32,000 nt of DNA. Source: Microcystis aeruginosa NIES-843 (GTDB taxonomy: Bacteria > Cyanobacteriota > Cyanobacteriia > Cyanobacteriales > Microcystaceae). The DNA lies in NCBI RefSeq assembly GCF_000010625.1, contig NC_010296.1:960001-992000 (forward strand), in the 5' to 3' direction. The position numbers and the translations under genes were made by a program. Below are positions 1 through 29,009 of this stretch, in pieces. The stretch's first letter is position 1. Each line of letters begins with the position of its first letter. Below the pieces are notes generated by a model that was given only the letters and a program-made list of their open reading frames with translations, did no database searches and was not told where the DNA came from.

Positions 1-380
1 GTAACATTTCTTCGGTGCAGAGTCTTGCGATCGCTGCCGATGGTCAGATTATTGCCGCCGGTTGTGTGGATGGTACGGTGAAAATCTGGCAATACGATCG
101 AGAGAAAAGCGGTCATTTTGCGCCAATTCGGGTGATCAATGCCCATAATGGTCAGGTGACAAGCTTGGTATTCGGAGGGGAGGGTCAATGGTTATTGACG
201 GGGGGAACCGACGGAGAGGTTAAAATCTGGTTAGCCAATTATCAACAGGCGATCGCAACTCTCAGCGCCACCAATGGGCGATCGTCGCCAATTTCCAGTT
301 TAGTTCTCAGCCCCGATTATTGCCACCTAGCGGCGGCGGCGGCCGACGGCAGCATCACCATCTGGGAAAATATCACTTAA
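1..380 (+). CDS. WD40-repeat protein, C-terminal part (ORF is open to the window edge)
   Basis: Repeated WD-blade endings (GCVDGTVKIWQ, GGTDGEVKIWL, AAADGSITIWE). The frame has no stop back to nt 3. Confidence 0.75.
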   Translation, partial: NISSVQSLAIAADGQIIAAGCVDGTVKIWQYDREKSGHFAPIRVINAHNGQVTSLVFGGEGQWLLTGGTDGEVKIWLANYQQAIATLSATNGRSSPISSLVLSPDYCHLAAAAADGSITIWENIT

Positions 381-402
381 TGGTCGATCGAACTAGAAAA
401 AT

Positions 403-410
403 TGTATAAT
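403..410 (+). promoter_or_regulatory. Candidate extended -10 box (TGTATAAT) upstream of rpoC1
   Basis: Perfect TGnTATAAT-type element in the 146-nt gap between the WD40 gene stop and the rpoC1 ATG. No good -35 box. Confidence 0.3.
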
Positions 411-526
411 GTAATGTCCCGGACTCGGTCGGGCCAGTTTGACCCGAAGAAAAAGTGACTGAGTTAACTGTCGTTTCTGCCCAATAGTTGTCAACCCAGA
501 TCATTACCCATAGTAAAAAATTCAGA

Positions 527-2407
527 ATGAAGACTCCAACAGATCAAAGATTTGATTACGTCAAAATCGGTTTAGCGTCCCCCGAGAGAATTCGGCAATG
601 GGGAGAAAGAACCCTACCTAACGGTCAAGTCGTCGGAGAAGTAACCAAACCAGAAACGATCAACTATCGGACTCTTAAACCGGAAATGGATGGGTTATTC
701 TGCGAGAAAATTTTTGGCCCCTCCAAAGACTGGGAATGTTGGTGCGGTAAATACAAGCGCGTCCGTCACCGGGGAATTGTCTGTGAACGTTGCGGGGTGG
801 AAGTCACCGAGTCGCGGGTACGTCGTCATCGCATGGGTTTTATCAAATTAGCCGCCCCCGTCACCCACGTTTGGTATCTTAAAGGTATTCCCAGTTATCT
901 CAGTATCCTGCTCGATATGCCCCTGCGGGACGTGGAGCAGATCGTCTATTTTAATGCCTATGTGGTTCTCGATCCGGGTAATGCCGGCAATCTTAGTTAT
1001 AAACAACTCCTCAGCGAAGATCAATGGTTAGAGATCGAAGAAGAAATCTACGCGGAGGATTCGGAATTAGTCGGTATTGAAGTGGGTATCGGGGCCGAGG
1101 CTATCCAAAGACTCTTACAGGAAATTAACCTGGAAGAAGAAGCGGAAAGACTGCGGACGGAAATTGTCGAAAGTAAAGGGCAAAAACGGGCAAAATTAAT
1201 TAAACGTCTCCGGGTAATCGATAACTTTATCGCCACGGGTTCTCAGGCAGAATGGATGGTTTTAAGCGTAATTCCCGTGATTCCACCCGATTTACGCCCC
1301 ATGGTGCAGTTGGACGGCGGCCGTTTTGCCACCTCTGACCTGAACGATCTCTACCGTCGGGTGATTAACCGCAATAACCGTTTATCCCGTCTGCAAGAAA
1401 TTCTCGCCCCGGAAATTATCGTCCGCAACGAAAAACGGATGTTACAGGAGGCCGTCGATGCTTTAATTGATAACGGTCGTCGCGGTCGCACGGTGGTGGG
1501 GGCCAATAATCGCGCCCTGAAGTCTTTATCGGATATTATCGAGGGTAAACAGGGGCGTTTCCGTCAAAATCTCCTCGGTAAACGGGTTGACTATTCGGGA
1601 CGTTCGGTTATCGTTGTCGGTCCGAAATTGAAGATCTATCAATGCGGTTTACCCAGGGAAATGGCGATCGAATTGTTCCAACCCTTCGTTATCCATCGTT
1701 TAATTAAATTAGGCATCGTCAATAATATCAAGGCAGCCAAGAAAATGATCCAACGGGGGGATGCCAATGTTTGGCACGTCTTGGATGAAGTGATCACGGG
1801 ACACCCGGTGATGTTAAACCGCGCCCCTACCCTGCACCGTTTGGGCATTCAAGCGTTTGAACCGATCTTAGTGGAGGGCCGGGCGATTCAGTTACATCCC
1901 CTCGTCTGTCCCGCTTTTAATGCTGACTTTGACGGGGACCAAATGGCCGTACATATTCCCCTCTCCCTGGAGGCACAATCGGAAGCGCGCTTATTGATGT
2001 TGGCCTGTCATAATATTCTCTCACCGGCGACCGGTCGCCCGATTGTTGCCCCTTCTCAGGATATGGTTTTGGGTTGTTATTATCTCACGGCCGAAAATCC
2101 CAAGGCCCAAAAGGGTGGGGGCCGTTATTTCGCCAGCATGGATGACGCTATTCGCGCTTTTGATCAGGGATTGGTGGATCTGCACGCTTCTGTGTGGTTG
2201 CGTTTACCGGTCGGAGAAAAGGTGAAAACCAATAAACCCGATGAGGAAGTCCTGGAAACGGAAACTCTCCCCGATGGCAGCATCTGGAAATATTATCGGG
2301 AGCGCAAAACCCGCGAGAAAGATGGTGAGATAATTTCTCAGTATGTGCGTACTACTGTAGGGCGAATTATCTACAATAAGACGATTCTAGAAGCTTTAGT
2401 AGTCTAG
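527..2407 (+). CDS. rpoC1: DNA-directed RNA polymerase gamma subunit (N-terminal half of beta-prime)
   Basis: Zn-binding CWCGKY...CERCGV, catalytic [12 protein letters not shown] motif, and length 626 aa from ATG 527. The ORF track's TTG at 488 is probably an over-extension. Confidence 0.95.
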
Positions 2408-2423
2408 AGAAAGATTAGGTTAG

Positions 2424-2449
2424 GGTGGGCATTGCCCACCTTAATTTTT
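2424..2449 (+). terminator. Rho-independent terminator after rpoC1 (possibly shared with convergent ridA)
   Basis: GGTGGGC-att-GCCCACC stem-loop followed by TTAATTTTT, 17 nt after the rpoC1 stop. Confidence 0.55.
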
Positions 2450-2837
2450 AGGCTAAAGCGGCAATACATTCTATTTCCACTAGCACATCTTTGGGAAGAC
2501 GGGCCACCTCCACACAGGCCCGGGCCGGGGCAGTTTCCGGGGGGAAATAACGGGCATAAACTTGATTCATCGCCCCGAAATTGGCTAAATCCGAGAGAAA
2601 GACGGTGGTTTTCACCACATTTGACCAATTAGCCCCAGCAGCGGTTAAAATGCCCTCTAGATTGGCCATAACTTGTTCGGTTTGGGTGCTAATTTCCCTG
2701 GAGACGATTTCACCCGTGACGGGATCTAGGGGAATTTGTCCCGCAACAAAGAGAAAAGGACCAGGAGCGGCGATCGCTTGATTATAGGGACCCACAGGGG
2801 CTGGAGCTTTATCAGTACGGATGACCTGATTATTCAT
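2448..2837 (-). CDS. ridA: RidA/YjgF/L-PSP family reactive-intermediate deaminase module (possible independent start at ATG 2837)
   Basis: [22 protein letters not shown]...VFLSDLANF...[20 protein letters not shown] is a full-length RidA. Host-like GC composition starts exactly at this ATG. Confidence 0.8.
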
Positions 2838-3332
2838 ATGACGTTGCAATTCTGCATCTAACTCTTTTAACAAACCATATATTTTATCAAAATCACGTTT
2901 AGTTTTAGAAGGAGCGTCATAAGTTCTCAAAGTACCTTTAGTATGAGTATGAGCCGCTCGATTGCGACTATCTTTTAGATTACCAAGATAACCTTTTAAA
3001 GCACTAATTTTACCAGTTTTTTCTAACTTTTTTTCGATTTTTTCTAATGTTGCTAAACCAATAACCATCATCAACATTTTTCTAAAAGGTTCATATTCAA
3101 AACTATGAGTACCACTAATAGTCTTATCGATGAATTTTTTGTTAGCTTCGGACTTTAAGCATCGTTTAGCACATCTTAAAACTATATCATCCATAGTTTC
3201 CTCGATCCAGCCACATAATTCTATAAGAGCTAGTTTGGAATAAGAAGAAGTTTTTTGATTATCAGCTGTAGGGTCATCATGGAGTTGATCAAGCCAGTTT
3301 AACGTCTTGAGTAAATAATCTTTAGTAATCAT
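2448..3332 (-). CDS. HEPN (RiboL-PSP-HEPN-like, Rx4H) - RidA/YjgF fusion ORF, 294 aa
   Basis: The N-terminal 165 aa are AT-rich and carry [12 protein letters not shown] (R-x4-H, Abi2/AbiD-like HEPN signature). The C-terminal 129 aa are RidA. There is no stop codon between the two parts. Confidence 0.7.
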
Positions 3333-4431
3333 TACCAGTAGATGAAAAAATTTTGATAGATGTATTAATTCTCTCTAAAGCCTTATCTTTTCGATACATA
3401 CCACTAGATAAATTTTCAGTTAAAAATGGTTCAGATTTTATTAATCTAGAATACTTGTCTTGTAATTCACCATTGGAGAGATTGACTAAAGTATCTAAAT
3501 TCTTGGCAACTCCTAAAAGAATTCCCTCAGCAATAACTTTACTGGTTTTGAGAGGTTCCTCTTTGAAGATTTTATCATAAATCAAGTCAACGGTTTGCTT
3601 AAATAATTCATCTTTATCTTGAATAAAATCTGCGTGAGCAAATCTATGTTTATACATATAATCATTTAAAAATCTGGTCAATTTCCCCTTGTAGTTCTGG
3701 TATTCATCATAAAAAGCAAAGAAACGAAGCACTAATTCTTCATCTCCAAATCGAGATGCTTTTTGCTGCTCTCGATCCATCAGCAAAAGCCAGTTTTCAT
3801 ATTGAGCGCATTCTTTTAAAAAACTATTAAACTTGCCATTATAGATACAATTTCTGATCTCCTGATTGTTAAGTTTTACTCCACCAGTATTTAAGCGATG
3901 GAAAATGGTAAAAATATAATTATTATGAGCTTTTTTGCTGGAGTCATAGCGAATCATGGTGATGGGAATAGTCATATTTTCTACGCGTTCATATAATTCT
4001 TCATGCTGAGTTTTTATTTCCTCAACTGTTCTTCCAGAAATAGACGAATCTACATCGGGTAATTTTGATAGCCTCCAATCTTCAGTAGTTAAAAATTTGA
4101 CGATGGTACTAATTCGTTGTAATCCATCGATGATATAGCGTTTATCTGTCTTATAGTCAAGACTAATACACATACTAGGAATCGGTAACTGTTTCATTAA
4201 ACTATCAATAAAACGAGTTTGTTGTGCCTCACTCCACACCACATCTCTTTGAAAATCTGGATCGATAACCAATTGTTTTTTTTTATACATTCTAACTAGA
4301 TCAGAGCAGGATCGCTGCTCATTGTAAGCAATAATATCCGCAGGAGGAAAATCCACATCATCTTCTTCCTCTAGATACTTTTCTTCTTCGGCTGCTAGTA
4401 ATTTCTCTTCTTGACTGAGATAATTAACCAT
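3322..4431 (-). CDS. DUF262 (ParB-like NTPase/nuclease superfamily, GmrSD N-terminal type) protein, 369 aa, with no recognisable DUF1524/HNH part
   Basis: Motifs [23 protein letters not shown] (DGQQR motif) and [18 protein letters not shown]. Strong SD (AGGAGGG) lies 8 nt upstream of ATG 4431. The 3' end overlaps the HEPN ORF start by 11 nt. Confidence 0.85.
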
Positions 4432-4706
4432 AATTTTTATCCCTCCTAATATTGCCAATTCAAAAATGAAACGCACGACTCCTTAAGAGTTGACAGACAA
4501 AGGATCATCAGGTACTGTCTGATCAATACAACAACAAATCAGACCCAAAAACGAAGCCACCAACATCTTAACATAGAACAAAGAAACTTGCTCTATCAAC
4601 TTGGTCAAGAGGGAAATTTATCTCAATGGCAAATGGCAGCTGGGATGTCATCAAAGCACGACCAAAGCGAGAATTAAGAAGGAATCAAGGTTCCCTCGGA
4701 TGCTAT

Positions 4707-5918
4707 CTACTGAAAATTGGTATCTTCATCGATTAAGTTAGCAATGCGAGCATAATAATCCAGTAATCCAGTGACAGGATAGCGGTCTGCTAGAGCGATC
4801 GAGGGAATATAAGGTATGATTAGATAGTCTTCTGAATCTATATCTAAATCATGATCGGTAGTTTCATCTATATCTATATTTTTGTCAATATCCTTTTGTA
4901 AAATTTGCCAAGCATGAGTAACTTTAGTTATTCCTGTATCACTTAAATCGGGAACAGGTGAAAAAACAAAATTAAGCGAAAGTCGGCCGAAAGAAGTCAA
5001 AGATTGCAAAAGAAGCTCGATTCCTTTTTGATTTTGTTCGTTAGGAAATAAAAAAATAATTGCTTCGTTGGCTGCCTGTAGTAAAGATAAAGCTCCCCAT
5101 TCATTGATTCCAGTACACGAATCTACTAAGATAAGATCAGGTTTTAACTGATTTTGAATCTCTCGACTAAAAGTTGACCAGAGTGTTTCCCCATTATCGA
5201 GAATTGTTGTTGCTCGCAGATCATCAACTTTAGCAATGTAATCAAGACTCAAATAACCCGCAGGAACAATAAATAGTCTTCCCGTTGCATCGGGAATATT
5301 AACTTCTCCAAATATTTTAGTGATATTAATCTTTGCTTCTACACCTTCTGGTAAATAGGATTTTTCATAAAAATAGTCCACAATTCCGTATTCCGGTAAG
5401 GGATTTAAGGGAAAAGCTGTGCTTAACCCCGGTGCTTCTAAATCCAAGTCAACAGCTACTACTTTACGACCTCGCATCGCTAAAATCCAAGCAACATGAA
5501 TTAAAGCAGTTGTCCTACCTACTCCCCCTTTAAAAGAATAAAAAGTTACGGTTCTAGGAAGACAAAGTTCGGGAGAAGACGGTGATTGATTTTGTGGATT
5601 AGCTGACCACAAGGCTAAATCTTGCCAAGTGTGAATTGATTTTGCGTCCAGAAGTTGTGGAGCTTTTAGATCGAGAGAGGCTGCCTCCTGAATAGTATAT
5701 AAAGATATAAAACCTAAAAATTTATGCTGTTGTTCTATGTCATTTGTAACTGCTTCTCTTCGCTGAGTTGTTGATAAATTTTCAAACTTATCACTGACGA
5801 TAGTTATATTCAAAAGTCCAGCAGTAGATACATTGAGATCAACCCATTCTTGTGCTTCTTTTTGAACATATATATCTGTTAATTTTTGTTTCAGTGATCT
5901 TAACCAAGTTTCTGACAT
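4707..5918 (-). CDS. KGGVGR-variant ParA/MinD (SIMIBI) P-loop ATPase with a BolA-like N-terminal domain, 403 aa
   Basis: Deviant Walker A FYSFKGGVGRTTAL, then VVAVDLDLEAPG and a Walker B-like LILVDSCTG. The N-terminal ~110 aa carry ITIVSDKFx7RR...LYTIQE, which resembles the BolA signature. Confidence 0.8.
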   Translation of the reverse strand: MSETWLRSLKQKLTDIYVQKEAQEWVDLNVSTAGLLNITIVSDKFENLSTTQRREAVTNDIEQQHKFLGFISLYTIQEAASLDLKAPQLLDAKSIHTWQDLALWSANPQNQSPSSPELCLPRTVTFYSFKGGVGRTTALIHVAWILAMRGRKVVAVDLDLEAPGLSTAFPLNPLPEYGIVDYFYEKSYLPEGVEAKINITKIFGEVNIPDATGRLFIVPAGYLSLDYIAKVDDLRATTILDNGETLWSTFSREIQNQLKPDLILVDSCTGINEWGALSLLQAANEAIIFLFPNEQNQKGIELLLQSLTSFGRLSLNFVFSPVPDLSDTGITKVTHAWQILQKDIDKNIDIDETTDHDLDIDSEDYLIIPYIPSIALADRYPVTGLLDYYARIANLIDEDTNFQ

Positions 5919-5928
5919 AAGTATCTCC

Positions 5929-6363
5929 TTAAAGTTGAGTAGCTTGTTTCTGAAGCCATTGTTTCAGACCTGTATAAGCTGATAACCACTCTTTGTATTT
6001 ATCGTCATTCGGTTCACTGCTGGAATAACGCATATCTATAAAATTTTGACTAGGATTTTCTACCGGTTTTTCTACTATATTAATCCATTTTATCACGTCT
6101 GGATAATTTTGAACTCTCGAATAGAGACGATTATTACTTTTTAGAGCAGCTGTCAAACTGTGACCCGGATTAGTTATGGTATGTCCGGGGTTATTGGACT
6201 TAGTTTTCCATTCTTGACTGGATACCGAAGCTAAGATCATAGATTTCAGCAAACATTCGATCGTAATACCTCCAAAGTGCATAGCAGCTATTTTCCTATT
6301 AGATTTACAAAGTATTTCTGTATCTTGATGACGTTGTAAAAAAGCTGATTGGTAATCTTCCAT
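5929..6363 (-). CDS. Small helical protein, tentatively HEPN-domain (KNTase/sacsin-type), 144 aa
   Basis: Helix pattern AAMHFGGITIECLLKSMIL ... GHSLTAALK ... DMRYSS resembles classic HEPN (xxAxExxLKAxL ... HDLxxL ... RY). It also has NRKIAAMH (R-x5-H). It lies 10 nt upstream of the ATPase gene. The function call is weak. Confidence 0.45.
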   Translation of the reverse strand: MEDYQSAFLQRHQDTEILCKSNRKIAAMHFGGITIECLLKSMILASVSSQEWKTKSNNPGHTITNPGHSLTAALKSNNRLYSRVQNYPDVIKWINIVEKPVENPSQNFIDMRYSSSEPNDDKYKEWLSAYTGLKQWLQKQATQL

Positions 6364-6424
6364 CCCTAATTATCTATTCGCTAGAGTCAATACCTGTGAA
6401 TAAGTTTTTAGCTGAGGATTAAAC

Positions 6425-6456
6425 AAGGGTACTTTATTAGACAATAAAGCACCCTT
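6425..6456 (-). terminator. Hairpin immediately after the ileS stop (possible terminator or island boundary)
   Basis: 14-bp stem with one mismatch (AAGGGTACTTTATT / AATAAAGCACCCTT) and a 4-nt loop, 10 nt downstream of the ileS stop. The U-tract on the minus strand is weak. Confidence 0.4.
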
Positions 6457-6466
6457 TTAATTTAGC

Positions 6467-9325
6467 TTAGAACTCTCCTTTTAAAGCGGCATTACAGCGC
6501 TCGCAAATAGTGGGATCATCGGCAAATTTTCCCACTTGAGTGGAATAATTCCAACAGCGATCGCATTTTTCGCCCTCTGCTTTGACAATTCCCACCGAAA
6601 CAAAGTCCGATTCTCCTTTATATTCTGCGGTTTGAATCGCGCTAATATCACTAACTAATTCCACTTGGGAAGAGAGAAATAGATAACGCAATTCATCAAC
6701 TTTATTCCCCGTTAAACTATCACAATTGTTGAATAATTCTAACTCCTGTTGTAAGCTTTCATCGGGAACATAAAGTAAAACTTTTGCCTCTAAAGAAGCA
6801 CCGATCGCTTTATCATTTCTGGCAGTTTCCATCACCTTATTAACTTCGGTGCGTAGCTGCCGGAATTTCGCCCATTTATCGGCCAATTCGCGATTATTCC
6901 AAGCAGGATCGATGTTTAGCCATCCTGACTCAAATACTGATAAATAAGGAGTTTTGTAGGGGAGAAATTGCCAGATATCTTCCGCTAGATGAGACAGGAC
7001 AGGAGCGATCGCTTTAGCGAGATTTTCTAAGGCAATAGCATAGACTGTTTGACAACTGCGACGACGGAAAGAATTAGGATCAGAAATATATAAACGATCC
7101 TTAGCGATGTCGATATAAAAGTTAGATAAATCGACAACACAAAAATTCTGTACCGTCTGGAAAAAGCGGAAAAATTGGAAACTTTCAAAAGCTGCCGTTA
7201 CTTCCGTAAACACCTCCGAGATACGATGTAACATATAGCGATCGATCTCCGGTAGATCTTCATAAGCTACCGCATCTTTAACGGGATCAAAATCATTTAA
7301 ACTCCCCAGTAAAAACCTGGCAGTATTACGGATTTTATTACGGATATCTACCAACTGTTTGAGAATATTTTGACCAATATTCACATCATTGGTATAGTCC
7401 ACCGAGGACACCCATAACCGAATCACATCTACCCCATAAGCGGGTTCTTTTTTCTGGTCTTTACCACCATTAATGATCACATTGGGATCGATGACATTCC
7501 CCAGAGATTTACTCATTTTTCGTCCCTGTTCATCCAAAACAAAACCGTGAGTTAACACCGTTTTATAGGGAGCAATACCATTAGCAGCGACACTGGTTAA
7601 TAAACTCGATTGAAACCATCCCCGATGCTGATCCGATCCTTCTAGATACATATCCGCAGGATAACTTAATTCTGGTCGAGCATTAGCCACCGCATTCCAA
7701 CTAGAACCAGAATCAAACCACACATCCATAGTATCCATTCCCTTGCGATAACTGCGACCATTATTGCGATAACTGGGAGGTAACAATTCCTCTACGGATA
7801 ACTCCCACCAAGCATTAGAACCCTTGACCCCAAAGATAGCTTGAACGTGATTAATCGTCTCCTCCGTTAACAGAGGTTCATTCGTTTCTTCGTCATAAAA
7901 AACAGGAATAGGAACCCCCCAACTGCGCTGACGAGAGATACACCAATCGCTTCTTTCACTAACCATAGAAGTGATACGATTCTTACCCGTTGCAGGAATC
8001 CAACGCACCGAATCAATTGCTTCTAAAGCTAATTCCCGGAATCCTTCCACGGAAGCAAACCATTGTTCCGTTGCGCGGAAAATTGTCGGTTTTTTGGTTC
8101 TCCAATCGTAGGGATATTTATGCTGATATGCTTCTTCTTTAAGTAACGCACCCTTTTCTGTCAGTGCTAAAATGATTGCTTCATTAGCATCTTTCAAGAC
8201 ATTTAAACCCGCAAATTGTCCCGCTTCTGCGGTGAAATTTCCCTTATCATCCACGGGAGAAAGTATCGGTAAACCGTAACGTTGACCGACGATATAATCC
8301 TCCTGACCATGGCCAGGGGCCGTATGAACTAATCCGGTACCAGAATCAGTGGTGACATAATCCCCACCGATGAGAATAGCACTTTCTCTGTCAAACAAAG
8401 GATGACGATATTTAGTATGTTCTAATTCCAGACCTTTAACCGTTGCTTTAATCGTCAAAGTCCTGTTAAAAGTGTCGGCCAATTTTTCGACTAAATCCGT
8501 CGCTACAATTAGATAATTAGACTCGCTAGTTTCCACCACTGAATAGTTTAATTCTGGGTTCAATGCGACGGCCAAATTCCCGGGTAAAGTCCAGGGAGTA
8601 GTCGTCCAGATAGCGACGGATAAATTAGGCAAAAATGGCCTTAAAACCGGGGTTGAAACTGACGTAATCGGAAAAGCAACATAGACACTGCGGGAAGTGT
8701 GACCTTCGGGATATTCTAATTCTGCCTCAGCTAAAGCGGTTTGAGAACTAGGACTCCAGTGAACCGGTTTTAGTCCCCGATAAATATAACCTTTCAGGGC
8801 CATTTTTCCGAATACGGCAATTTGAGCGGCCTCGTATTCCGGTTGTAGGGTTAAATAGGGATTTTCCCAGTCTCCCCAGACTCCATACCTTTTGAAACCT
8901 TCACACTGTTCTTTTTGCGTTTGAAGGGCAAAATCGTGGGCTTTCTGACGTAATTTCACAGGGGTTAGACCCTCTTTTTCCGAGCTTTTGAGACTTTGTA
9001 AAACCTTCAGTTCGATCGGCAACCCGTGACAATCCCAACCTGGCACATAGCGCACTTTGTAGCCTTGCAGCAGTTTATATTTATTGATAATGTCTTTGAG
9101 AATTTTATTTAAAGCATGACCGATATGCAGAGACCCGTTAGCGTAGGGTGGTCCATCGTGGAGAATAAATAATTCTTTGGGGTTATTTTGCGCTAATTTC
9201 TCATATATTTGCTCATCTTGCCAGAATTTCTGGATTTCTGGCTCACGTTTACTGGCATTTGCTCGCATATCAAAGTCAGTTTGGGGCAAATTAACGGTAT
9301 CTTTGTAACTTTTAGCGTTGGACAT
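6467..9325 (-). CDS. ileS: Isoleucine--tRNA ligase
   Basis: Class I signatures HIGHALN and KMSKS, a CP1 editing region, and a C-terminal Zn-finger (CDRCWNY...CERC). Length 952 aa. Confidence 0.97.
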   Translation of the reverse strand: MSNAKSYKDTVNLPQTDFDMRANASKREPEIQKFWQDEQIYEKLAQNNPKELFILHDGPPYANGSLHIGHALNKILKDIINKYKLLQGYKVRYVPGWDCHGLPIELKVLQSLKSSEKEGLTPVKLRQKAHDFALQTQKEQCEGFKRYGVWGDWENPYLTLQPEYEAAQIAVFGKMALKGYIYRGLKPVHWSPSSQTALAEAELEYPEGHTSRSVYVAFPITSVSTPVLRPFLPNLSVAIWTTTPWTLPGNLAVALNPELNYSVVETSESNYLIVATDLVEKLADTFNRTLTIKATVKGLELEHTKYRHPLFDRESAILIGGDYVTTDSGTGLVHTAPGHGQEDYIVGQRYGLPILSPVDDKGNFTAEAGQFAGLNVLKDANEAIILALTEKGALLKEEAYQHKYPYDWRTKKPTIFRATEQWFASVEGFRELALEAIDSVRWIPATGKNRITSMVSERSDWCISRQRSWGVPIPVFYDEETNEPLLTEETINHVQAIFGVKGSNAWWELSVEELLPPSYRNNGRSYRKGMDTMDVWFDSGSSWNAVANARPELSYPADMYLEGSDQHRGWFQSSLLTSVAANGIAPYKTVLTHGFVLDEQGRKMSKSLGNVIDPNVIINGGKDQKKEPAYGVDVIRLWVSSVDYTNDVNIGQNILKQLVDIRNKIRNTARFLLGSLNDFDPVKDAVAYEDLPEIDRYMLHRISEVFTEVTAAFESFQFFRFFQTVQNFCVVDLSNFYIDIAKDRLYISDPNSFRRRSCQTVYAIALENLAKAIAPVLSHLAEDIWQFLPYKTPYLSVFESGWLNIDPAWNNRELADKWAKFRQLRTEVNKVMETARNDKAIGASLEAKVLLYVPDESLQQELELFNNCDSLTGNKVDELRYLFLSSQVELVSDISAIQTAEYKGESDFVSVGIVKAEGEKCDRCWNYSTQVGKFADDPTICERCNAALKGEF

Positions 9326-9525
9326 TCTGGCAAACCTATGGATATCAATCGTTTTCGGGATTCATTCCTAAATAACGTCCCTTTGAGAGTCGTTATCTCT
9401 ATTCTGTCACATAATTGTAGTATAAGTATTACAAGTGACAATCATTGATCTATCAGTCTAGCGAGATTGAGTCCAAGAGCAATGATTCCGAAAGGCTATA
9501 ATTCAGTTATTCGAGAATAGGGAGC

Positions 9526-10107
9526 ATGAGGACCATGGTGACGAATCCTAATTTTTTTTATGTCTCTCCAGAAGTGTATCTAGAAGGGGAAAGAGTCAGT
9601 CCGATCAAGCACGAGTACCGAAAAGGACAGATTTATGCGATGGTAGGGGCAAAAAAGCCGCATATCGTTTTATCGGCCAATTTAGCCAAGGTTTTAGGCA
9701 ATCATCTCGATGATAGTCCCTGTCTTGTTCTCACTTCCGATATCAAAGTCCGGTTAGAGGAGGCAAATTGTTATTATTATCCCGATATTGCGGTGGTTTG
9801 TGACGAGAGAGAGATTAACAATACCGATGATTTTATTCTCTATCCCGTTCTGATTATTGAAGTATTATCGAAATCTACGGAATCCTTTGATAGGGGTGAT
9901 AAATTTAGCGATTATCAAACCTGTCCCACCTTAAAAGAATACATTCTTATCCATCAAAACCAGATGAAAATTGAATGTCACCGTCGCGAGGATTCGGGAA
10001 TCTGGAAAGAACAGATCTATGAAGCCGGGGATGCGGTAGAATTCACCACTGTAGGATTCCGGGGATCGATCGCTTCTATCTATCGCAAAGTCCCCGGTTT
10101 GGTATGA
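9526..10107 (+). CDS. Uma2 (DUF820) family PD-(D/E)XK-fold putative endonuclease, divergent paralog
   Basis: YPDIAVVC...LIIEVLSKST...D motif layout typical of the cyanobacterial Uma2 family. Confidence 0.85.
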   Translation: MRTMVTNPNFFYVSPEVYLEGERVSPIKHEYRKGQIYAMVGAKKPHIVLSANLAKVLGNHLDDSPCLVLTSDIKVRLEEANCYYYPDIAVVCDEREINNTDDFILYPVLIIEVLSKSTESFDRGDKFSDYQTCPTLKEYILIHQNQMKIECHRREDSGIWKEQIYEAGDAVEFTTVGFRGSIASIYRKVPGLV

Positions 10108-10266
10108 TTGCCATTCTTTCTTGACATCGCACTTTTATGTCTCTAGGGATAAGGGTAGATCTGTCTCCCTTTGCCTAAAAACCGAGATTATCAAGCATTT
10201 AATTCTATTTGTCAAACCTGTAGGAAGTTTTCCTTTTGGGTAGCTGTCCGTCAATACCAAATTAGG

Positions 10267-10484
10267 TTAGGGTCTGCTGAAAAAGTTTTTCCTAGGGGCA
10301 GGGTGTAGGGTGTGGGGTGTGGGGTGTGGGGTTTTACCGATTTTGAGGGGGTCAATTACCTAATTTTCAGGGAAAAAGTCCCTGAATTTACCCCTGATCA
10401 CTCCCATATCTGGTACTTTTTGAGGGGAAAAAAGTCCAAAAGTCTTATCCAACAAGGTTTTTAGATTTATTCAGCAACCCCTAA
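10267..10484. repeat. ~218-bp MITE-like repeat, copy 1 (second copy at 19950-20168)
   Basis: Near-colinear match to 19950-20168. Imperfect terminal inverted repeats (TTAGGGTCTGCTGAA... / ...TTCAGCAACCCCTAA). An internal GGGGTGT/AGGGTGT heptamer run is present. Confidence 0.65.
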
Positions 10485-11708: not shown

Positions 11709-13127
11709 TAGGGTTGATTCATTTAAATTAAGTACAGCGGATTTTGAGTCAATAAATTTGAATGAAAATTCTCAAGTTTATCTTTTTCTAATCAAAAGAG
11801 TTAGTGACAATAACTAATCTTTAATCCTCTGCCAATATTGATTATGAATAAATTGATAAAGCTTGTTCCCAAGCCACTAAAAGCCTATCTCTCTTCAAAT
11901 TGTCTGAGAGTACATCCTGTTAATTTAGCTAATTTTTCTGCTTCTTACGTCGATAAAACTATCAGTTTTTCCCAACGTTCAGCTAACCACCTCTGTCCCT
12001 CTGTTATTGAGAGAAAACCCAAACCTCTGAAAAGATTCAATCCTATAGTTGTGAGAATTGACCAATTGCTGGCCGCTTGAAAATCACTTATCTCGCTTTT
12101 ATCTTCCTCAAAAATTACATCTTTTACCCAATGTAACTGATTTTCTATTTTCCAATGTCCTCGAATAATTTTAGCAAATACTTGGGCGGATTCGGTTAGG
12201 CTACTGATATAGTAAGCTGTTTCTTCATAAGTTTTATCCCCGCGACTACCCCTTCTTTCTACTTTAATAATTCGGCGCAGATTTTCAAACCCTTGTCTTT
12301 CATTTTTCCTCACTTTAAAAACTTCTATTTTTCTGGATATTTTTCGTCCATGACTATTGTCTTGTTCAAGAAAACAACTTTCTGGCTTTGAGGAATTACT
12401 CAGGTCTTGTATTCGCTTATAAAGATTTTTCTGATTTCCTTTAACGGTGATAACATAGTCATTTTTACTCTTGGCTATTAAGCTGATTGTTTTTTTCTGA
12501 CAGTGTAAAGCATCCCCAGTAAAAACTTTATTTTGAAGAGTGCAATCCTCAATTATAGCTTGACCTTCGTCGATTTCAGACCCTTTTTTGTTTTCAATTC
12601 TTTTTAAGTGTAATACCAAGCCACTTTCTTGACTAAACAATGAGACAAACATAATAAAATTTTCTTGTTCATTGTTAGGATTCTTTAGAGTGTTTTTGAG
12701 ACTTTTTCCATCTATGTCTAGCCAATTTATATCACTTCTTTGTCCATATTCTTGTAATGCCCATTCCTTAAACATTTTTAACAAAATCTGCCATTCAACT
12801 CCCATCATTACCCTTCTAATTGTTGAATAGGATGGGACTCTTTCTGGAATTATGTTAAATTCTTGACTGAGCCTGTGCCGATTATTTTTAGCAAACTCTC
12901 CTAGCTCTCTATAACCTGAGTATCCTAGCATTGTTCCCCGTATTATTACTACTAATACTATCCATAAAGGGTGTCTTTTTCCTTTATCTTTCCGAAAGTC
13001 CTTGACTTGTTTCAGTTTTTCTATTAAGCTCAACATATATTTGAAAAGTTGCCGGTCACTCCTCATTTTACAAAGACAGTGATCGCTTTTACTTTTGATA
13101 TTCTGATGGGAGAATGAAACAGCCCTA
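11709..13127 (-). mobile_element. ISAs1-family insertion sequence, 1419 bp, apparently intact
   Basis: 15-bp terminal inverted repeats TAGGGTTGATTCATT (11709-11723) and the reverse complement of 13113-13127, TAGGGCTGTTTCATT (13/15 match). A perfect 10-bp direct repeat CCCGACGTGG flanks it at 11699-11708 and 13128-13137. Confidence 0.8.
11945..13036 (-). CDS. ISAs1-family DDE transposase
   Basis: N-terminal KDFRKDKGKRHPLW and C-terminal RGHWKIENQLHWVKDVIFEEDKS are characteristic of ISAs1/H-repeat transposases. The start is placed at ATG 13036. The track's ORF extends to 13189, beyond the IS end, so that extension is spurious. Confidence 0.85.
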   Translation of the reverse strand: MLSLIEKLKQVKDFRKDKGKRHPLWIVLVVIIRGTMLGYSGYRELGEFAKNNRHRLSQEFNIIPERVPSYSTIRRVMMGVEWQILLKMFKEWALQEYGQRSDINWLDIDGKSLKNTLKNPNNEQENFIMFVSLFSQESGLVLHLKRIENKKGSEIDEGQAIIEDCTLQNKVFTGDALHCQKKTISLIAKSKNDYVITVKGNQKNLYKRIQDLSNSSKPESCFLEQDNSHGRKISRKIEVFKVRKNERQGFENLRRIIKVERRGSRGDKTYEETAYYISSLTESAQVFAKIIRGHWKIENQLHWVKDVIFEEDKSEISDFQAASNWSILTTIGLNLFRGLGFLSITEGQRWLAERWEKLIVLST

Positions 13128-13267
13128 CCCGACGTGGGGGTTGGGGGGTGTTGCCCTTTGCAAGAGTGCCTCTTGCCTCGTCTCAACAAGCAATTTAAAT
13201 TACGAACAGCTTATAGGACGTTTTTGAACCACCAAAAATTAATTATGCAAGAGGTTTAATAAATAAA

Positions 13268-14279: not shown

Positions 14280-15377
14280 TTAGTGAGAAACAATTAAACC
14301 GTTAGAACGACGGATTAACTGAATCTTGCTAACAGCTATCTGTCCCAATCGTTGACCATTGGTATCGCTTACAGATAGCTGTTTTTCGGTATCTCCACTG
14401 ACATAACCAATTCCTTTGGGAGAAGAAACTAAATCTCCTTTACGGAACCCATGTCCTGTGGTAGAGCCACCATATTTACGTCGTTTACCACCTTTAGAAA
14501 AAACCATCAGGTGAAGTTGACGACGACTAATAGGAGGACGTTTGATGACAGCAAAGGGAGCGTTTGTTACTTTAACAGAACCCTTCCAATCATATCCATG
14601 TCCATTATAATTGTGGAATGGCCAATAATCTAAAAATTGAAAACAGGCAAGAGCAATGCCATCGTTAGCATGGCTTTCTGGTGATTGTTCTGCTTTATTT
14701 TTGGACTTTTCTAGTCCCAAATATTTTCTGAGATTAGAGGTTTGCCAACCAAAGCGAGTATGGACTGTTGCCAATTGAGACAGTTGCTCAATTGCCCATT
14801 TCTGTCCGACCATAACCGACGAGAAACCTTTTCCAGACTTAGCTCCTTTTCTACCGGAAGTTAAATCAACATCGGCTTTGACATACTCAAAGTAAATGTC
14901 AGTAATTGGATAGATTTTGGTTAGTTCGGAAACGACGCGAAGTTCAAGTTGACGATTAGCTCTGATTGAGGGAGCTAATTTTCCTTGTTTTCTATTTGAG
15001 AATCGTTTTTGTCGATGCGCTCTTAGATTAAAAGAAAGTTGGCGGTTAATCCGTCTTTTTCTACGTCCTCTTCGCATTAACCGTCTATTGTCCAGGCGCT
15101 CTTTTACTCGTTTAAAAGGAAGTTCTAAGTGAGCCTTCCAAAGAGTAAAAAGAGAGGATTGAACGCCAATTCCAGAGAATAATTTACCCGGGTCAATACC
15201 AATAGCAATCGGTTGGGTTTTACTATCGGAAGGTTCATCGATTAGCTGGACATAGAAAATACCTAAGTCGTTGAATTTACCGATAGCTTTTCCTTCTTTA
15301 ATCCACCGTCTGGCCCGACTGGGTTTAGTGGGCATCAACGACTTTCCGTCTTTTGAGATAACAGGAACTCTTGCCAT
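14280..15377 (-). CDS. isrB: IsrB-like OMEGA RNA-guided nuclease (IscB relative lacking the HNH insert), 365 aa
   Basis: PLMP-type N-terminus (KSLMPTKPSRARRW), RuvC-I IGIDPGKLFSGIGV, Arg-rich bridge helix RRLMRRGRRKRRINRQ, RuvC-II IYFEYVKADV, RuvC-III ESHANDGIALA, and a C-terminal GFRKGDLV...GYVSG domain. There is no CxxC/HNH segment. An SD (AAGGA) precedes ATG 15377. Confidence 0.8.
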   Translation of the reverse strand: MARVPVISKDGKSLMPTKPSRARRWIKEGKAIGKFNDLGIFYVQLIDEPSDSKTQPIAIGIDPGKLFSGIGVQSSLFTLWKAHLELPFKRVKERLDNRRLMRRGRRKRRINRQLSFNLRAHRQKRFSNRKQGKLAPSIRANRQLELRVVSELTKIYPITDIYFEYVKADVDLTSGRKGAKSGKGFSSVMVGQKWAIEQLSQLATVHTRFGWQTSNLRKYLGLEKSKNKAEQSPESHANDGIALACFQFLDYWPFHNYNGHGYDWKGSVKVTNAPFAVIKRPPISRRQLHLMVFSKGGKRRKYGGSTTGHGFRKGDLVSSPKGIGYVSGDTEKQLSVSDTNGQRLGQIAVSKIQLIRRSNGLIVSH

Positions 15378-15690
15378 GGAGATAATCCTTAAGAGTAAAG
15401 TTAAAGTCCCTTTCCGCAACACAATCAAGATGTCTTGTCTAACAACGCTTTACCAATAAAGCTGAGAGGGAATCCGAACTAGGGAAGCATTCGGAAGTCT
15501 GTGCCAGATTGTGTCTCGATGCGGTAGTCTCTACTTGCGTCGCCTAAATTGGTCTAGGCAAGCTCCGTCCCTTTTAGGGCGGGGTTAGTGACTAGTCTGT
15601 TTAAAAGTTCTCGCTGGGGATTCCCAGAAGGATTTTGCCGAGAGGCACTCTGACAAACTGCAATTTCTAATTAACTCTCGCTCAACCCCC
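15378..15690 (-). ncRNA. Putative omega RNA of the IsrB locus (5' boundary uncertain)
   Basis: About 300 nt of ORF-free sequence directly upstream of isrB carries several hairpins (CTGGGAATCCCCAG; CCCCGCCCTAAAAGGGACGG; TCCGAA...TTCGGA). The position matches the known IscB/IsrB locus layout. Confidence 0.45.
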
Positions 15691-22343: not shown

Positions 22344-23000
22344 TCACAACTGTGTCGGGTCAATGCCCAATTCCCGTAATCGGGCAAAAGCGCGGTCGCG
22401 CTCTTGTTGTGCTTGGTTGCGTTCCTCAAAGAGGGTTTCAGGGTCTTTAAATCGTTCCCCATTGGGATAAAAGACCTCTAAACCCTCTTCAAACATCTCA
22501 AACCGAATCCCTAGGATTGGGGAAGTCCAAGGAAAATTCAAGGCCGTTACTGGGAAAAAATCCTCTTGCTGATTGGCCCGCACCAATCCCCAGAAATCAT
22601 GGGAGTCTGGGTCATAGAAAAACATTTCTAATACCCCATGCTCCCGATAGAAAGACTGCTTTTTGAGCATTTCCCTGGCACTATTGCTCGGAGAGAGGAT
22701 TTCAAACACTACCTGGGGGGCAATATTGTCTTCTTCCCATTGTTTATAGCTGCCGCGCTCACCCGGTGGACGGCCGAAAACTACCATGGCATCGGGAGCT
22801 TGACGGGGAGCGGGGGGGACAGTTACCTGCTGGGGATACCAGAGCAAATCTCCGGCAACAAAGACGGTTTGCCCTTTAAATAAATACCTGAGATTGGCAA
22901 CCAAGCGAACAATCCAGCGATATTGAACTGTGTTGTCGGCCATGGGTTTACCGTCGGAGTCAGGATAGAAAAGTTGGGGTTCGATGGGTGCTTGAACCAT
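22344..23000 (-). CDS. Uma2 (DUF820) family putative endonuclease, copy 1 (one NQAQQER unit)
   Basis: PDAMVVFG...VVFEILSPSN PD-(D/E)XK-like core. Convergent with rpsF, with only 6 nt between the stops. Confidence 0.85.
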   Translation of the reverse strand: MVQAPIEPQLFYPDSDGKPMADNTVQYRWIVRLVANLRYLFKGQTVFVAGDLLWYPQQVTVPPAPRQAPDAMVVFGRPPGERGSYKQWEEDNIAPQVVFEILSPSNSAREMLKKQSFYREHGVLEMFFYDPDSHDFWGLVRANQQEDFFPVTALNFPWTSPILGIRFEMFEEGLEVFYPNGERFKDPETLFEERNQAQQERDRAFARLRELGIDPTQL

Positions 23001-24347: not shown

Positions 24348-25067
24348 TCACAACTGTGTCGGATCAATGCCCAATTCGCGTAATCGGGCAAAAGCGCGAT
24401 CGCGTTCTTGTTGTGCTTGGTTGCGTTCCTGTTGTGCTTGGTTGCGTTCCTGTTGTGCTTGGTTGCGTTCTTGTTGTGCTTGGTTGCGCTCCTCAAAGAG
24501 GGTTTCAGGGTCTTTAAATCGTTCCCCATTGGGATAAAAGACCTCTAAACCCTCTTCAAACATCTCAAACCGAATCCCTAGGATTGGGGAAGTCCAAGGA
24601 AAATTCAAGGCCGTTACTGGGAAAAAATCCTCTTGCTGATTGGCCCGCACCAATCCCCAGAAATCATGGGAGTCTGGGTCATAGAAAAACATTTCTAATA
24701 CCCCATACTCCCGATAGAAAGACTGCTTTTTGAGCATTTCCCTGGCACTATTGCTCGGAGAGAGGATTTCAAACACTACCTGGGGGGCAATATTGTCTTC
24801 TTCCCATTGTTTATAGCTGCCGCGCTCACCCGGTGGACGGCCGAAAACTACCATGGCATCGGGAGCTTGACGGGGAGCGGGGGGTACAGTTACCTGCTGG
24901 GGATACCAGAGCAAATCCCCAGCGACAAAGACGGTTTGCTCCTTAAATAAATACCTGAGATTGGCAACCAAGCGAACAATCCAGCGATATTGAACTGTGT
25001 TGTCGGCCATGGGTTTACCGTCGGAATCAGGATAGAAAAGTTGGGGTTCGATGGGTGCTTGAACCAT
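24348..25067 (-). CDS. Uma2 family putative endonuclease, copy 2 (four NQAQQER units)
   Basis: About 99 percent identical to copy 1 apart from the 21-bp repeat expansion and a few substitutions. Confidence 0.85.
   Translation of the reverse strand: MVQAPIEPQLFYPDSDGKPMADNTVQYRWIVRLVANLRYLFKEQTVFVAGDLLWYPQQVTVPPAPRQAPDAMVVFGRPPGERGSYKQWEEDNIAPQVVFEILSPSNSAREMLKKQSFYREYGVLEMFFYDPDSHDFWGLVRANQQEDFFPVTALNFPWTSPILGIRFEMFEEGLEVFYPNGERFKDPETLFEERNQAQQERNQAQQERNQAQQERNQAQQERDRAFARLRELGIDPTQL
24402..24485. repeat. 4 x 21-bp in-frame tandem repeat inside Uma2 copy 2
   Basis: GCGTTC(T/C)TGTTGTGCTTGGTT x4. Copy 1 has one unit and copy 3 has two. Confidence 0.9.
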
Positions 25068-25311: not shown

Positions 25312-25920
25312 TTAATAAAGTCGAGGTTGAAAATTATCGGGAATATCCAATTCAAATACTTGGTCATGAATCCGAGCCACATAAAACCCTTCTTGCAGAA
25401 TTTTTTCCCGTAATTCCGGGGATACATGAACCGCCGCTAATATGCCATAGAGTTTTTTATCTTTGTGTTCAGGGAAAAAGTTGCGAAACCGTTGCAAAAT
25501 ACTTTTTAATTGTGAAATAGACTCCTCTCTGGCATGACTTTTAACTTCGACGATATAAGCAGTATTTAGCTGACCATTGGTATAGGCAAGAACATCAATT
25601 TCTAGGTGTTTTCCATCTTTACTGACTCGGACACTGGGACTGATAACTTCCATACCAAAGCGTTGTCTGAGAATCTTTTCCATTGAAGGGAGGGCAAGTC
25701 CTTCGGTAAAGCTGCCGAATTTTGCACCGAGTCCCCCAATTTGCTGACCTAATTCTTTGAGTTGTTTGTCAGTTTTCTTCTGTTGTTGGGCGTTTTCCTG
25801 CTGTTGCTGACTAACTTCCTTCAATAGTAGGTCAGTCTCCTTCAGTTGTTTGTCAGTTTCTTTTTGAGCAGTCGCTAATTCGGCTAAGAGTCGCCATACG
25901 TCTTCGGATGTAGTTGCCAT
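25312..25920 (-). CDS. Coiled-coil + PD-(D/E)XK-like fold protein (DUF3782-like; tentative), paralog 1
   Basis: N-terminal K/Q/E-rich coiled coil with repeated TDKQLKE. The C-terminal part has HLEIDVLAY...AYIVEVKS (D...E-x-K arrangement). Confidence 0.7.
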   Translation of the reverse strand: MATTSEDVWRLLAELATAQKETDKQLKETDLLLKEVSQQQQENAQQQKKTDKQLKELGQQIGGLGAKFGSFTEGLALPSMEKILRQRFGMEVISPSVRVSKDGKHLEIDVLAYTNGQLNTAYIVEVKSHAREESISQLKSILQRFRNFFPEHKDKKLYGILAAVHVSPELREKILQEGFYVARIHDQVFELDIPDNFQPRLY

Positions 25921-27510: not shown

Positions 27511-28188
27511 TCACAACTGTGTCGGGTCAATGCCCAATTCGCGTAATCGGGCAAAAGCGCGGTCGCGTTCCTGTTGTGCTTGGTTGCGTTCTTGTTGTGC
27601 TTGGTTGCGTTCCTCAAAGAGGGTTTCAGGGTCTTTAAATCGTTCCCCATCGGGATAAAAGACCTCTAAACCCTCTTCAAACATCTCAAACCGAATCCCT
27701 AGGATTGGGGAAGTCCAAGGAAAATTCAAGGCCGTTACTGGGAAAAAATCCTCTTGCTGATTGGCCCGCACCAATCCCCAGAAATCATGGGAGTCTGGGT
27801 CATAGAAAAACATTTCTAATACCCCATGCTCCCGATAGAAAGACTGCTTTTTGAGCATTTCCCTGGCACTATTGCTCGGAGAGAGGATTTCAAACACTAC
27901 CTGGGGGGCAATATTGTCTTCTTCCCATTGTTTATAGCTGCCGCGCTCACCCGGTGGACGGCCGAAAACTACCATGGCATCGGGAGCTTGACGGGGAGCG
28001 GGGGGTACAGTTACCTGCTGGGGATACCAGAGCAAATCTCCAGCGACAAAGACGGTTTGCCCTTTAAATAAATACTTGAGATTGGCAACCAAGCGAACAA
28101 TCCAGCGATATTGAACTGTGTTGTCGGCCATAGGTTTACCGTCGGAGTCAGGATAGAAAAGTTGGGGTTCGATGGGTGCTTGAACCAT
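27511..28188 (-). CDS. Uma2 family putative endonuclease, copy 3 (two NQAQQER units)
   Basis: Near-identical to copies 1 and 2. Confidence 0.85.
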   Translation of the reverse strand: MVQAPIEPQLFYPDSDGKPMADNTVQYRWIVRLVANLKYLFKGQTVFVAGDLLWYPQQVTVPPAPRQAPDAMVVFGRPPGERGSYKQWEEDNIAPQVVFEILSPSNSAREMLKKQSFYREHGVLEMFFYDPDSHDFWGLVRANQQEDFFPVTALNFPWTSPILGIRFEMFEEGLEVFYPDGERFKDPETLFEERNQAQQERNQAQQERDRAFARLRELGIDPTQL

Positions 28189-28400: not shown

Positions 28401-29009
28401 TTAATAAAGTCGAGGTTGAAAATTATCGGGAATATCCAATTCAAATACTTGGTCATGAATCCGAGCCACATAAAACCCTTCTTGCAGAATTTTTTCCCGT
28501 AATTCTGATGATAAATGAACCGCCGCTAATATGCCATAGAGTTTTTTATCTTTGTGTTCAGGGAAAAAGCGGCGAAACCGTTGCAAAATACTTTTTAATT
28601 GTGAAATAGACTCCTCTCTAGCATGACTTTTAACCTCGACGATATAAGCAGTATTTAGCTCACCATTAGTATAGGCAAGGACATCAATTTCTAGGTGTTG
28701 TCCTTCTTTACTGACTCGCACACTGGGACTGATAACTTCCATACCAAAGCGTTGTCTGAGAATCGTTTCCATTGAAGGGAGGGCAAGTCCTTCGGTAAAG
28801 CTGCCGAATTTGGCACCGAGTCCCCCAATTTGCTGACCTAATTCTTTGAGTTGTTTGTCAGTTTTCTTCTGTTGTTGCGCGTTTTCCTTCTGTTGCTGAC
28901 TAACTTCCTTCAATAGTAGGTCAGTCTCCTTCAGTTGTTTGTCGGTTTCTTTTTGAGCAGTCGCTAATTCGGCTAAGAGTCGCCATACGTCTTCGGATGT
29001 AGTTGCCAT
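28401..29009 (-). CDS. Coiled-coil + PD-(D/E)XK-like fold protein, paralog 2
   Basis: 202 aa with about 10 substitutions relative to 25312-25920. Confidence 0.7.
   Translation of the reverse strand: MATTSEDVWRLLAELATAQKETDKQLKETDLLLKEVSQQQKENAQQQKKTDKQLKELGQQIGGLGAKFGSFTEGLALPSMETILRQRFGMEVISPSVRVSKEGQHLEIDVLAYTNGELNTAYIVEVKSHAREESISQLKSILQRFRRFFPEHKDKKLYGILAAVHLSSELREKILQEGFYVARIHDQVFELDIPDNFQPRLY

Follow-up and report, generated by a model that had tools for sequence, protein, structure and literature searches.

A putative C-less copy of the candidate defence system PDC-M28 in Microcystis aeruginosa, pairing a predicted HEPN-fold protein with a BolA-like, KGGVGR-type NTPase

The PDC systems are 145 untested phage defence candidates that were recognised in BREX, DISARM and type I restriction-modification loci through "guilt by embedding" (Payne et al., bioRxiv 10.1101/2024.01.29.577857). 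One of them, PDC-M28 (multi-gene candidate no. 28), is cassette CAS_00115, with the family order FAM_01482>>FAM_02546>>FAM_01036 and 121 occurrences (supplement of Payne et al., 10.1101/2024.01.29.577857). The conflict systems described from multicellular prokaryotes contain MinD/ParA-like domains that are predicted to be inactive (Kaur et al. 2020, PMC7159879), and HEPN domains carry two signatures, the Rx4-6H site at the helix-3/helix-4 junction and Ex3[KR] in helix 2, with the AF0298/AbiV-type members having lost the motif His and relying on a His that is conserved in the helix-2/3 insert (Anantharaman et al. 2013, PMC3710099). Here, we analysed two adjacent genes, A and B, in a stretch of 32,000 nucleotides of Microcystis aeruginosa NIES-843 (contig NC_010296.1, positions 960,001 to 992,000; the whole stretch is called the window below, and positions are counted from its first letter). 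Their sequences point to parts A and B of PDC-M28, with a predicted HEPN-fold protein followed by one in which a BolA-like domain precedes a MinD/ParA-type nucleoside triphosphatase (NTPase) domain; part C is absent from the window.

The two genes are co-oriented on the minus strand and separated by a spacer of 10 nt (5919-5928), in which a GGAG stands 6 nt from the ATG of gene B:

5929 to 6363, minus strand: gene A, 144-aa protein of predicted HEPN fold (PADLOC PDC-M28A), from the open reading frame (ORF), PADLOC, the AlphaFold2 (AF2) model and Foldseek
4707 to 5918, minus strand: gene B, 403-aa protein with a BolA-like domain and a KGGVGR MinD/ParA-type NTPase domain (PADLOC PDC-M28B), a short form that lacks the C module
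5925 to 5928, minus strand: GGAG ribosome-binding site of gene B, within the A-B spacer, read from the sequence

A first-pass annotation of the window, made by a model from its letters, had placed both ORFs, their spacing and all quoted strings correctly, with its NRKIAAMH corresponding to residues 22-29 of A. To it, the genes looked like a two-gene sensor/effector module, and this has to be revised, as they are not a self-contained system. The PADLOC model PDC-M28A (PDLC04558) matches A with E=2.6e-8 (32.4 bits, residues 2-71) and PDC-M28B (PDLC04559) matches B with E=2.3e-40 (residues 119-364), while long relatives of B match PDC-M28B together with PDC-M28C (PDLC04561). As in the PADLOC system, A is followed by B on one strand in a defence neighbourhood; the PADLOC system, however, comprises three families in the order A>>B>>C, of which C is absent from the window. 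On these profile matches, the pair is an already catalogued unit, namely parts A and B of the three-part candidate PDC-M28.

The linkage of the two genes was followed across 81 loci encoding a KGGVGR ATPase, 80 of them from GTDB species-representative genomes and one from a metagenome contig (L001). The BolA-like head is present in 56, and is thus a feature of only a subfamily of the KGGVGR ATPases (NCBIfam NF047398) in this sample. An A gene lies directly upstream in 52 of the 56 head-bearing loci, which belong to Cyanobacteria, Bacillota, Chloroflexota and Proteobacteria, so that the two genes are neighbours elsewhere, as the first-pass annotation had expected; the gaps between them are mostly from -3 to about 60 nt, with two near 200 nt. 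An A gene is missing from all 24 KGGVGR loci that lack the head. B is extended in 45 of the 56 loci by about 470 residues that match both NF047389 ("P-loop ATPase, Sll1717 family") and PDC-M28C, and this C module shows weak similarity to AAA_16, ORC-CDC6-like and nSTAND3 domains. In addition, in one partial protein of 842 aa from the library of representatives (P0289), an A domain is joined to the BolA-like head and the KGGVGR NTPase, and the polypeptide runs on into the start of the Sll1717 module; this is a fusion of natural origin or else results from reading through the stop codon of A. A separate case is the locus of P0047 (L082/L083), where a short KGGVGC form of B is found with no called A (356-nt gap upstream) and no C, probably a decayed copy. 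As for novelty, a description of KGGVGR, PDC-M28 or Sll1717 proteins as BolA-like or HEPN-like was not found in the literature searched, Payne et al. included; the gene pair itself had already been catalogued by PADLOC and the ATPase family named by NCBIfam.

BolA proteins are associated with iron-sulfur (Fe-S) trafficking and stress morphology. The domains of B are arranged as follows:

5673 to 5918, minus strand: BolA-like domain of B, residues 1-82 (family profile, AF2 model, Foldseek)
5559 to 5672, minus strand: residues 83-120 of B, a linker containing the invariant W98 and a conserved helix at 98-106
4707 to 5558, minus strand: MinD/ParA-like NTPase domain of B, residues 121-403, plus the stop codon (NF047398, PADLOC, MinD alignment)
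5508 to 5534, minus strand: deviant Walker A FKGGVGRTT, residues 129-137, with K130 as signature Lys and R135 replacing the P-loop Lys

The strings on which a BolA-like head was first proposed are ITIVSDKF at residues 38-45, RR at 53-54, seven residues further on, and LYTIQE at 73-78. Taken alone, the B sequence reaches Pfam BolA (PF01722) with E=0.017-0.099 and 13.4-15.8 bits, under the cut-off of 25.7. The family gives a clearer signal, and the proposal is borne out by it: with a profile built from 61 non-redundant N-domains, the top 15 PDB hits are all BolA chains, the best one being AtBolA2 (E=1.7e-4, profile positions 6-79 against chain positions 4-78), and Pfam BolA is matched by 39 of the 61 members, any other family by at most two. 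The AF2 model of the N-domain (predicted local distance difference test, pLDDT, 84.8) has the BolA order, a1(2-17) b1(25-30) b2(36-41) a2(50-64) b3(68-74) a3(76-81), followed by the extra helix 98-106, and its top 11 Foldseek matches in the PDB are all BolA (prob 0.97-1.00, target-based template modelling score, TMt, 0.54-0.62, E 5e-3 to 3e-2). R53 and W98 are invariant in the family, with F45, L73, T75 and E78 conserved in at least 90%. One JGI record, P0073, had been named automatically as "stress-induced morphogen", and therefore the BolA signal is occasionally caught by annotation pipelines.

Compared with the BolA family (PF01722; AtBolA2 2mm9/4puh, human BOLA1/3, E. coli BolA 2dhm), the head of B shares the a1-b1-b2-a2-b3-a3 fold, the VS-x2-F-x7-R signature (F45 and the invariant R53) and the T-x2-E after b3. 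It differs in falling under the Pfam cut-off, in having one Arg in place of RHR, and in being fused to an NTPase, whereas BolA is found standalone or joined to SufE. Moreover, in the profile alignment to AtBolA2 combined with the family alignment, the two Fe-S ligands of BolA, the Cys of GGCGS in the b1-b2 loop and the His of EIHAL before b3, align to Thr/Ser and Gly/Ser, respectively. Because the family profile and Foldseek both match BolA while the Fe-S ligands are lost and the RHR is reduced, residues 1-82 are, as far as profiles and model can tell, a divergent derivative of the BolA fold and no bona fide BolA. A role of this head with glutaredoxin or in Fe-S chemistry is unlikely.

The remainder of B, which the first-pass annotation had called a KGGVGR ATPase of ParA/MinD type, belongs to a named family: residues 121-307 match NF047398, "KGGVGR-motif variant AAA ATPase", with E=3.9e-49 and 167.6 bits against a cut-off of 90 bits, the model spanning the NTPase core only. 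Aligned to MinD (4v03), B retains the signature Lys K130, the switch I residues D157 and D159 and the Walker B D266. The canonical P-loop Lys (GK[ST]) is absent, its place being taken by R135, or by Cys in some relatives, and against the ParA, MinD and Mrp equivalog models B scores far under each cut-off. Because the P-loop Lys is Arg in KGGVGR, B is probably a nucleotide-binding, dimerising switch with slow or no hydrolysis. A parallel is offered by the systems of Kaur et al. (PMC7159879) from filamentous or colonial bacteria, where a STAND/AAA-type ATPase is likewise the partner of a MinD/ParA domain with compromised P-loop; unlike here, BolA is mentioned zero times in that work, and its MinD/ParA-like domains are not confirmed as members of the KGGVGR family.

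Two readings of B outside defence were considered at this point. In the first, BolA would be fused to an Mrp/NBP35/ApbC-like carrier of the MinD type for housekeeping Fe-S trafficking. In its favour, BolA and the Mrp/NBP35 ATPases both act in Fe-S delivery, and B matches Pfam PF10609 ("NUBPL iron-transfer P-loop NTPase") below threshold (5e-5, 23.3 bits against a cut-off of 27.1). What it requires of the sequence is missing, however: non-ligand residues occupy the BolA ligand positions, there is no CxxC after Walker B, and the single C268 of the window protein is Arg in other alleles. The patchy distribution, the low-GC islet (see below), the PADLOC matches and the HEPN-fold partner also speak against it, and we regard it as very improbable; the carrier identity itself was rejected, given the lack of CxxC and the MrpORP and ApbC models scoring far under their cut-offs. 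In the second, DNA would be partitioned by a ParA-type ATPase that uses its BolA-like head to bind DNA and works with a small adaptor. The MinD/ParA fold with its signature Lys is compatible with it; the Arg or Cys in place of the P-loop Lys, the chromosomal locus between ileS and rpoC1 with no plasmid copies found, the small upstream gene with a HEPN fold in place of a ribbon-helix-helix or helix-turn-helix domain, and the fusion of most relatives to a second ATPase are not, and it is hard to credit at all. Both the carrier and the partition readings were rejected on motif grounds.

Gene A belongs to a small family; 1.84 billion proteins yield 105 representatives of it at 50% identity. Its AF2 model (pLDDT 95.2) is all-helical, with helices 4-20, 24-45, 88-98 and 120-143 and a long insert after the second. 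In Foldseek searches of the PDB, every match with a template modelling score (TM) above 0.45 is a HEPN domain (1wol, 2hsb, 1o3u, 2q00, sacsin, Csm6'), with prob 0.97 and TM 0.58/0.67 for 1wol, and with 1wol, 2hsb and 1o3u as the best matches in the range of TM 0.58-0.67. The model hence supports a HEPN-type fold for A, with weak fold scores, in agreement with what had been suggested from the helix pattern. A comparison of the A profile with the HEPN_RiboL-PSP domain encoded in the same window by hhalign (prob 0.3%) was uninformative, and Foldseek of A against viral structures returned nothing useful. H68 and Y113 do not vary across a set of 73 diverse members, in which R11, H29, G31, G32, E36, C37, K40, W52, P104, I109, R112 and W126 are conserved in at least 90%. 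The positions of interest are:

6244 to 6258, minus strand: E36-C37-L-L-K40 (E-x3-K) in helix 2 of A, with E36, C37 and K40 at least 90% conserved (n=73)
6160 to 6162, minus strand: H68 in the helix-2/3 insert of A, invariant (n=73), placed like the alternative His of the AF0298/AbiV type, with a presumed equivalence in three dimensions
6025 to 6030, minus strand: R112-Y113 (IDMRY) of A, in the loop leading to the last helix, with R112 as a candidate counterpart of the Rx4-6H Arg and no His following
6277 to 6297, minus strand: R23-x5-H29 (RKIAAMH), at the helix-1/helix-2 junction, with H29 nearly invariant and R23 being F, S or N in distant members

The R-x5-H that had been put forward as the HEPN motif is the last of these, and its location at the junction of helices 1 and 2, together with the replacement of R23 in distant members, does not support that assignment. 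The second signature is found as E36-x3-K40 inside helix 24-45. With the AF0298 (2hsb)/AbiV-type HEPN-T domains (PMC3710099), A shares the four-helix bundle, the long helix-2/3 insert, the Ex3K in helix 2, and a motif that has kept its basic residue and lost its His, with a separate conserved His in the insert. It differs by having no significant sequence-profile link to them, by its additional conserved R11, H29, C37, W52 and Y113, and by its partner, an NTPase as opposed to a nucleotidyltransferase. By this analogy, the conserved set E36-x3-K40, H68 and R112-Y113 fits the AF0298/AbiV-type HEPN variant, with proximity of these residues in the fold presumed. As a side observation, four residues (VEKP, residues 99-102, about 6058-6069) are inserted ahead of VENP in the A allele of the window, in what resembles a small tandem duplication; in most Microcystis alleles, the length of A is 140 aa.

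Taken together, we consider A-B a C-less copy of PDC-M28 whose most likely function, slightly favoured over all others combined, is that of a defence module in which an NTPase controls a HEPN ribonuclease (RNase). A would be the RNase effector, as an AF0298/AbiV-like HEPN variant, and B would hold or control it; upon infection, A would be released or activated, and RNA cleavage would result in abortive infection. The BolA-like domain may serve as a nucleic-acid-binding or docking module with no Fe-S partner, and in most relatives C adds a third P-loop ATPase of STAND/AAA-like type that continues B. What the analysis establishes is the order of the genes, the identities of their domains, the residues conserved, the linkage and the loss of C; that A acts as an RNase, that B controls it, that the pair serves in defence and that the C-less Microcystis form may still be active are inferred. 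A more far-reaching version, held only tentatively, is that PDC-M28 is a real immune system with a BolA-derived sensing or docking head on a KGGVGR switch and a non-canonical HEPN RNase relying on the insert His, and that the C-less Microcystis form is active, its effector diversifying against cyanophages.

The tight coupling of a small HEPN-fold gene to a larger partner, with a 10-nt gap and a shared ribosome-binding region, can also be read as a toxin-antitoxin addiction pair, in which the HEPN toxin A is constitutively neutralised by B and the pair stabilises the islet with no phage sensing. There is ample precedent for HEPN toxins that act with a protein partner, as for instance HepT/MntA (PMC3710099), and the persistence of the C-less form in Microcystis would be consistent with it. 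The partner, however, is an NTPase of about 400-900 aa and no nucleotidyltransferase antitoxin, the ancestral form with its two NTPase modules is typical of sensor switches, and a tblastn search of A against plasmids and phages gave no match. We therefore consider an addiction pair rather improbable.

The loss of C is directly visible downstream of B. Homology with the long genes in which B is fused to C breaks off at 4716, and there is no remnant of C beyond it:

4477 to 4716, no strand: breakpoint and unrelated spacer

The blastn alignment to a long-form locus (L003, 73% protein identity) stops there, 9 nt before the stop codon of B, with the IDEDTN of the window followed by FQ and the stop codon and the IDEETN of L003 continuing as QIRSQ. 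No C module was detected in the 32-kb window by tblastn, and the best hit of a six-frame search with hidden Markov models had E=0.49. C-less A+B loci recur in unrelated cyanobacteria (L001, L015, L084/85). In the last of these, two metagenome contigs with A and the short B of P0038, the pair is followed by genes for a Peptidase_C14 (caspase-like) protein and an HD-domain protein and preceded by a TIR-pentapeptide gene, a defence-rich setting.

Within Microcystis, both ORFs are intact and have the same ends in five assemblies, and the ratio of non-synonymous to synonymous substitution rates (dN/dS) against distant relatives is 0.12-0.14. Among 34 Microcystis-type alleles of A, 52 of the 144 positions are variable, and none of the 14 positions conserved in the family (P=0.0013). 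Three Microcystis alleles of A differ by about 23.5 non-synonymous versus 1.5 synonymous changes. The proportion of synonymous differences (pS) in A is 0.006-0.012 versus 0.055-0.089 in ileS, the proportion of non-synonymous ones (pN) being tenfold higher in A, which results in a pN/pS of 3-7 for A (window against L002 and L086-L088) versus 0.06-0.07 for ileS, with small counts. This excess in A may reflect diversifying selection. An rpoC1 control against L002 was set aside as a frame artefact. As to B, the BolA-like head was not clearly enriched in amino-acid variation among Microcystis when the domains were compared.

The main rival explanation is a decaying remnant, in which a deletion or replacement took the C ATPase and left the Microcystis pair without function. 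Besides the breakpoint and the missing module, it can draw on the relatives of B being cut at many points (403, 406, 425, 438 and 514 aa), on a pN/pS of B of 0.4-1.65 among Microcystis, near 1 in some pairs, and on degraded Microcystis alleles of A, e.g., P0165 (E36K, W52G, R112G), as well as P0156 and P0188. The last two points also count against a working defence module, and they are not the only ones. Because the window has no module C, which 45 of the 56 relatives possess, the local copy may be disabled; the non-synonymous excess in A is only marginal versus neutrality (P=0.03-0.10); and the plasmid and phage search mentioned above argues in the same direction. On the side of the fold, A has weak Foldseek E-values (0.4-4, with none reaching 1e-3), sequence profiles of the whole A family and of two subgroups retrieved no HEPN or other meaningful hit from the PDB, Pfam HEPN (PF05168) is reached by two of the 73 members only (E=0.024), and the canonical His of Rx4-6H is absent, none being present 5-7 residues after R112 in any A subgroup. 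Furthermore, PDC-M28 is still a candidate of which no member has been experimentally tested (Payne et al., 10.1101/2024.01.29.577857). A remnant, in turn, is not what would be expected from the intact ORFs with their identical ends, from the invariance of the family-conserved positions of A, from the retention of all NTPase motifs in B, or from C-less pairs recurring in unrelated cyanobacteria, and the non-synonymous excess in A with its very low pS is unlike a neutral pattern with frameshifts. On balance, loss of function is unlikely in our view, yet a serious contender to the NTPase-controlled RNase module.

The pair does not stand alone. In the direction of transcription, ileS (6467-9325) is the upstream neighbour of A, and downstream of B lies a complete PD-T4-2 system, beyond which rpoC1 (488-2407) is convergent. 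The other annotated features of this part of the chromosome and of the following one are:

2448 to 4476, minus strand: adjacent PD-T4-2 system, with GmrSD_N/DUF262 at 3322-4476 and a HEPN_RiboL-PSP-RidA fusion at 2448-3332
11945 to 13189, minus strand: IS4-type DDE transposase (DDE_Tnp_1 and DDE_Tnp_1_assoc), in a region of GC 0.34
14280 to 15428, minus strand: 382-aa RRXRR-family protein (Pfam PF14239, E=4.5e-52)

The 384-aa GmrSD_N/DUF262 protein matches PD-T4-2_A (E=2.9e-159) and the 294-aa fusion of HEPN_RiboL-PSP (1-165) with RidA (169-292) matches PD-T4-2_B (E=1.5e-208), the two genes overlapping by 11 nt. The GC content is 0.31-0.38 over 3000-7000, versus 0.47-0.49 at 1-3000 and 0.42-0.44 at 7000-9000. 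Positions 1-10269 of the window are syntenic with Microcystis sp. LSC13-02 (L002) at 95-96% identity, and the order ileS-A-B-DUF262-HEPN/RidA-rpoC1 recurs in at least five Microcystis assemblies. A, B and PD-T4-2 form a small low-GC defence islet in the ileS-rpoC1 interval of the Microcystis chromosome.

Some further observations concern these neighbours. At the HEPN/RidA junction, LSC13-02 has about 160 extra nt (7433-7594 of L002, against about 2837 of the window) placed exactly there; the 294-aa fusion is retained in other Microcystis contigs, and the GC content is 0.31 on the HEPN/DUF262 side versus 0.47 on the RidA side. Elsewhere in the window, four paralogues of the putative endonuclease Uma2/DUF820 are encoded at 9526-10107 (plus strand), 22344-23000, 24348-25067 and 27511-28188 (all minus strand). 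Each of the last two has an ORF of about 202 aa upstream on its own strand (25312-25920 and 28401-29009), the first of these ORFs matching DUF3782, and the arrangement resembles a repeated two-gene cassette.

For PDC-M28, the analysis provides a concrete anatomy: a predicted HEPN-fold effector with E36, K40, H68 and R112, plus H29, as candidate catalytic residues, a BolA-fold head without Fe-S ligands, a MinD-type switch with an Arg in its P-loop and, in most cases, a third ATPase of STAND/AAA-like type. If this reading holds, the BolA fold would here have been put to a new use, as part of an immune NTPase. Microcystis offers a natural C-deleted version, fixed beside PD-T4-2 and with a fast-evolving putative effector, that would be useful for assigning roles to the modules, and the locus may be of relevance for the phage resistance of this bloom-forming cyanobacterium.

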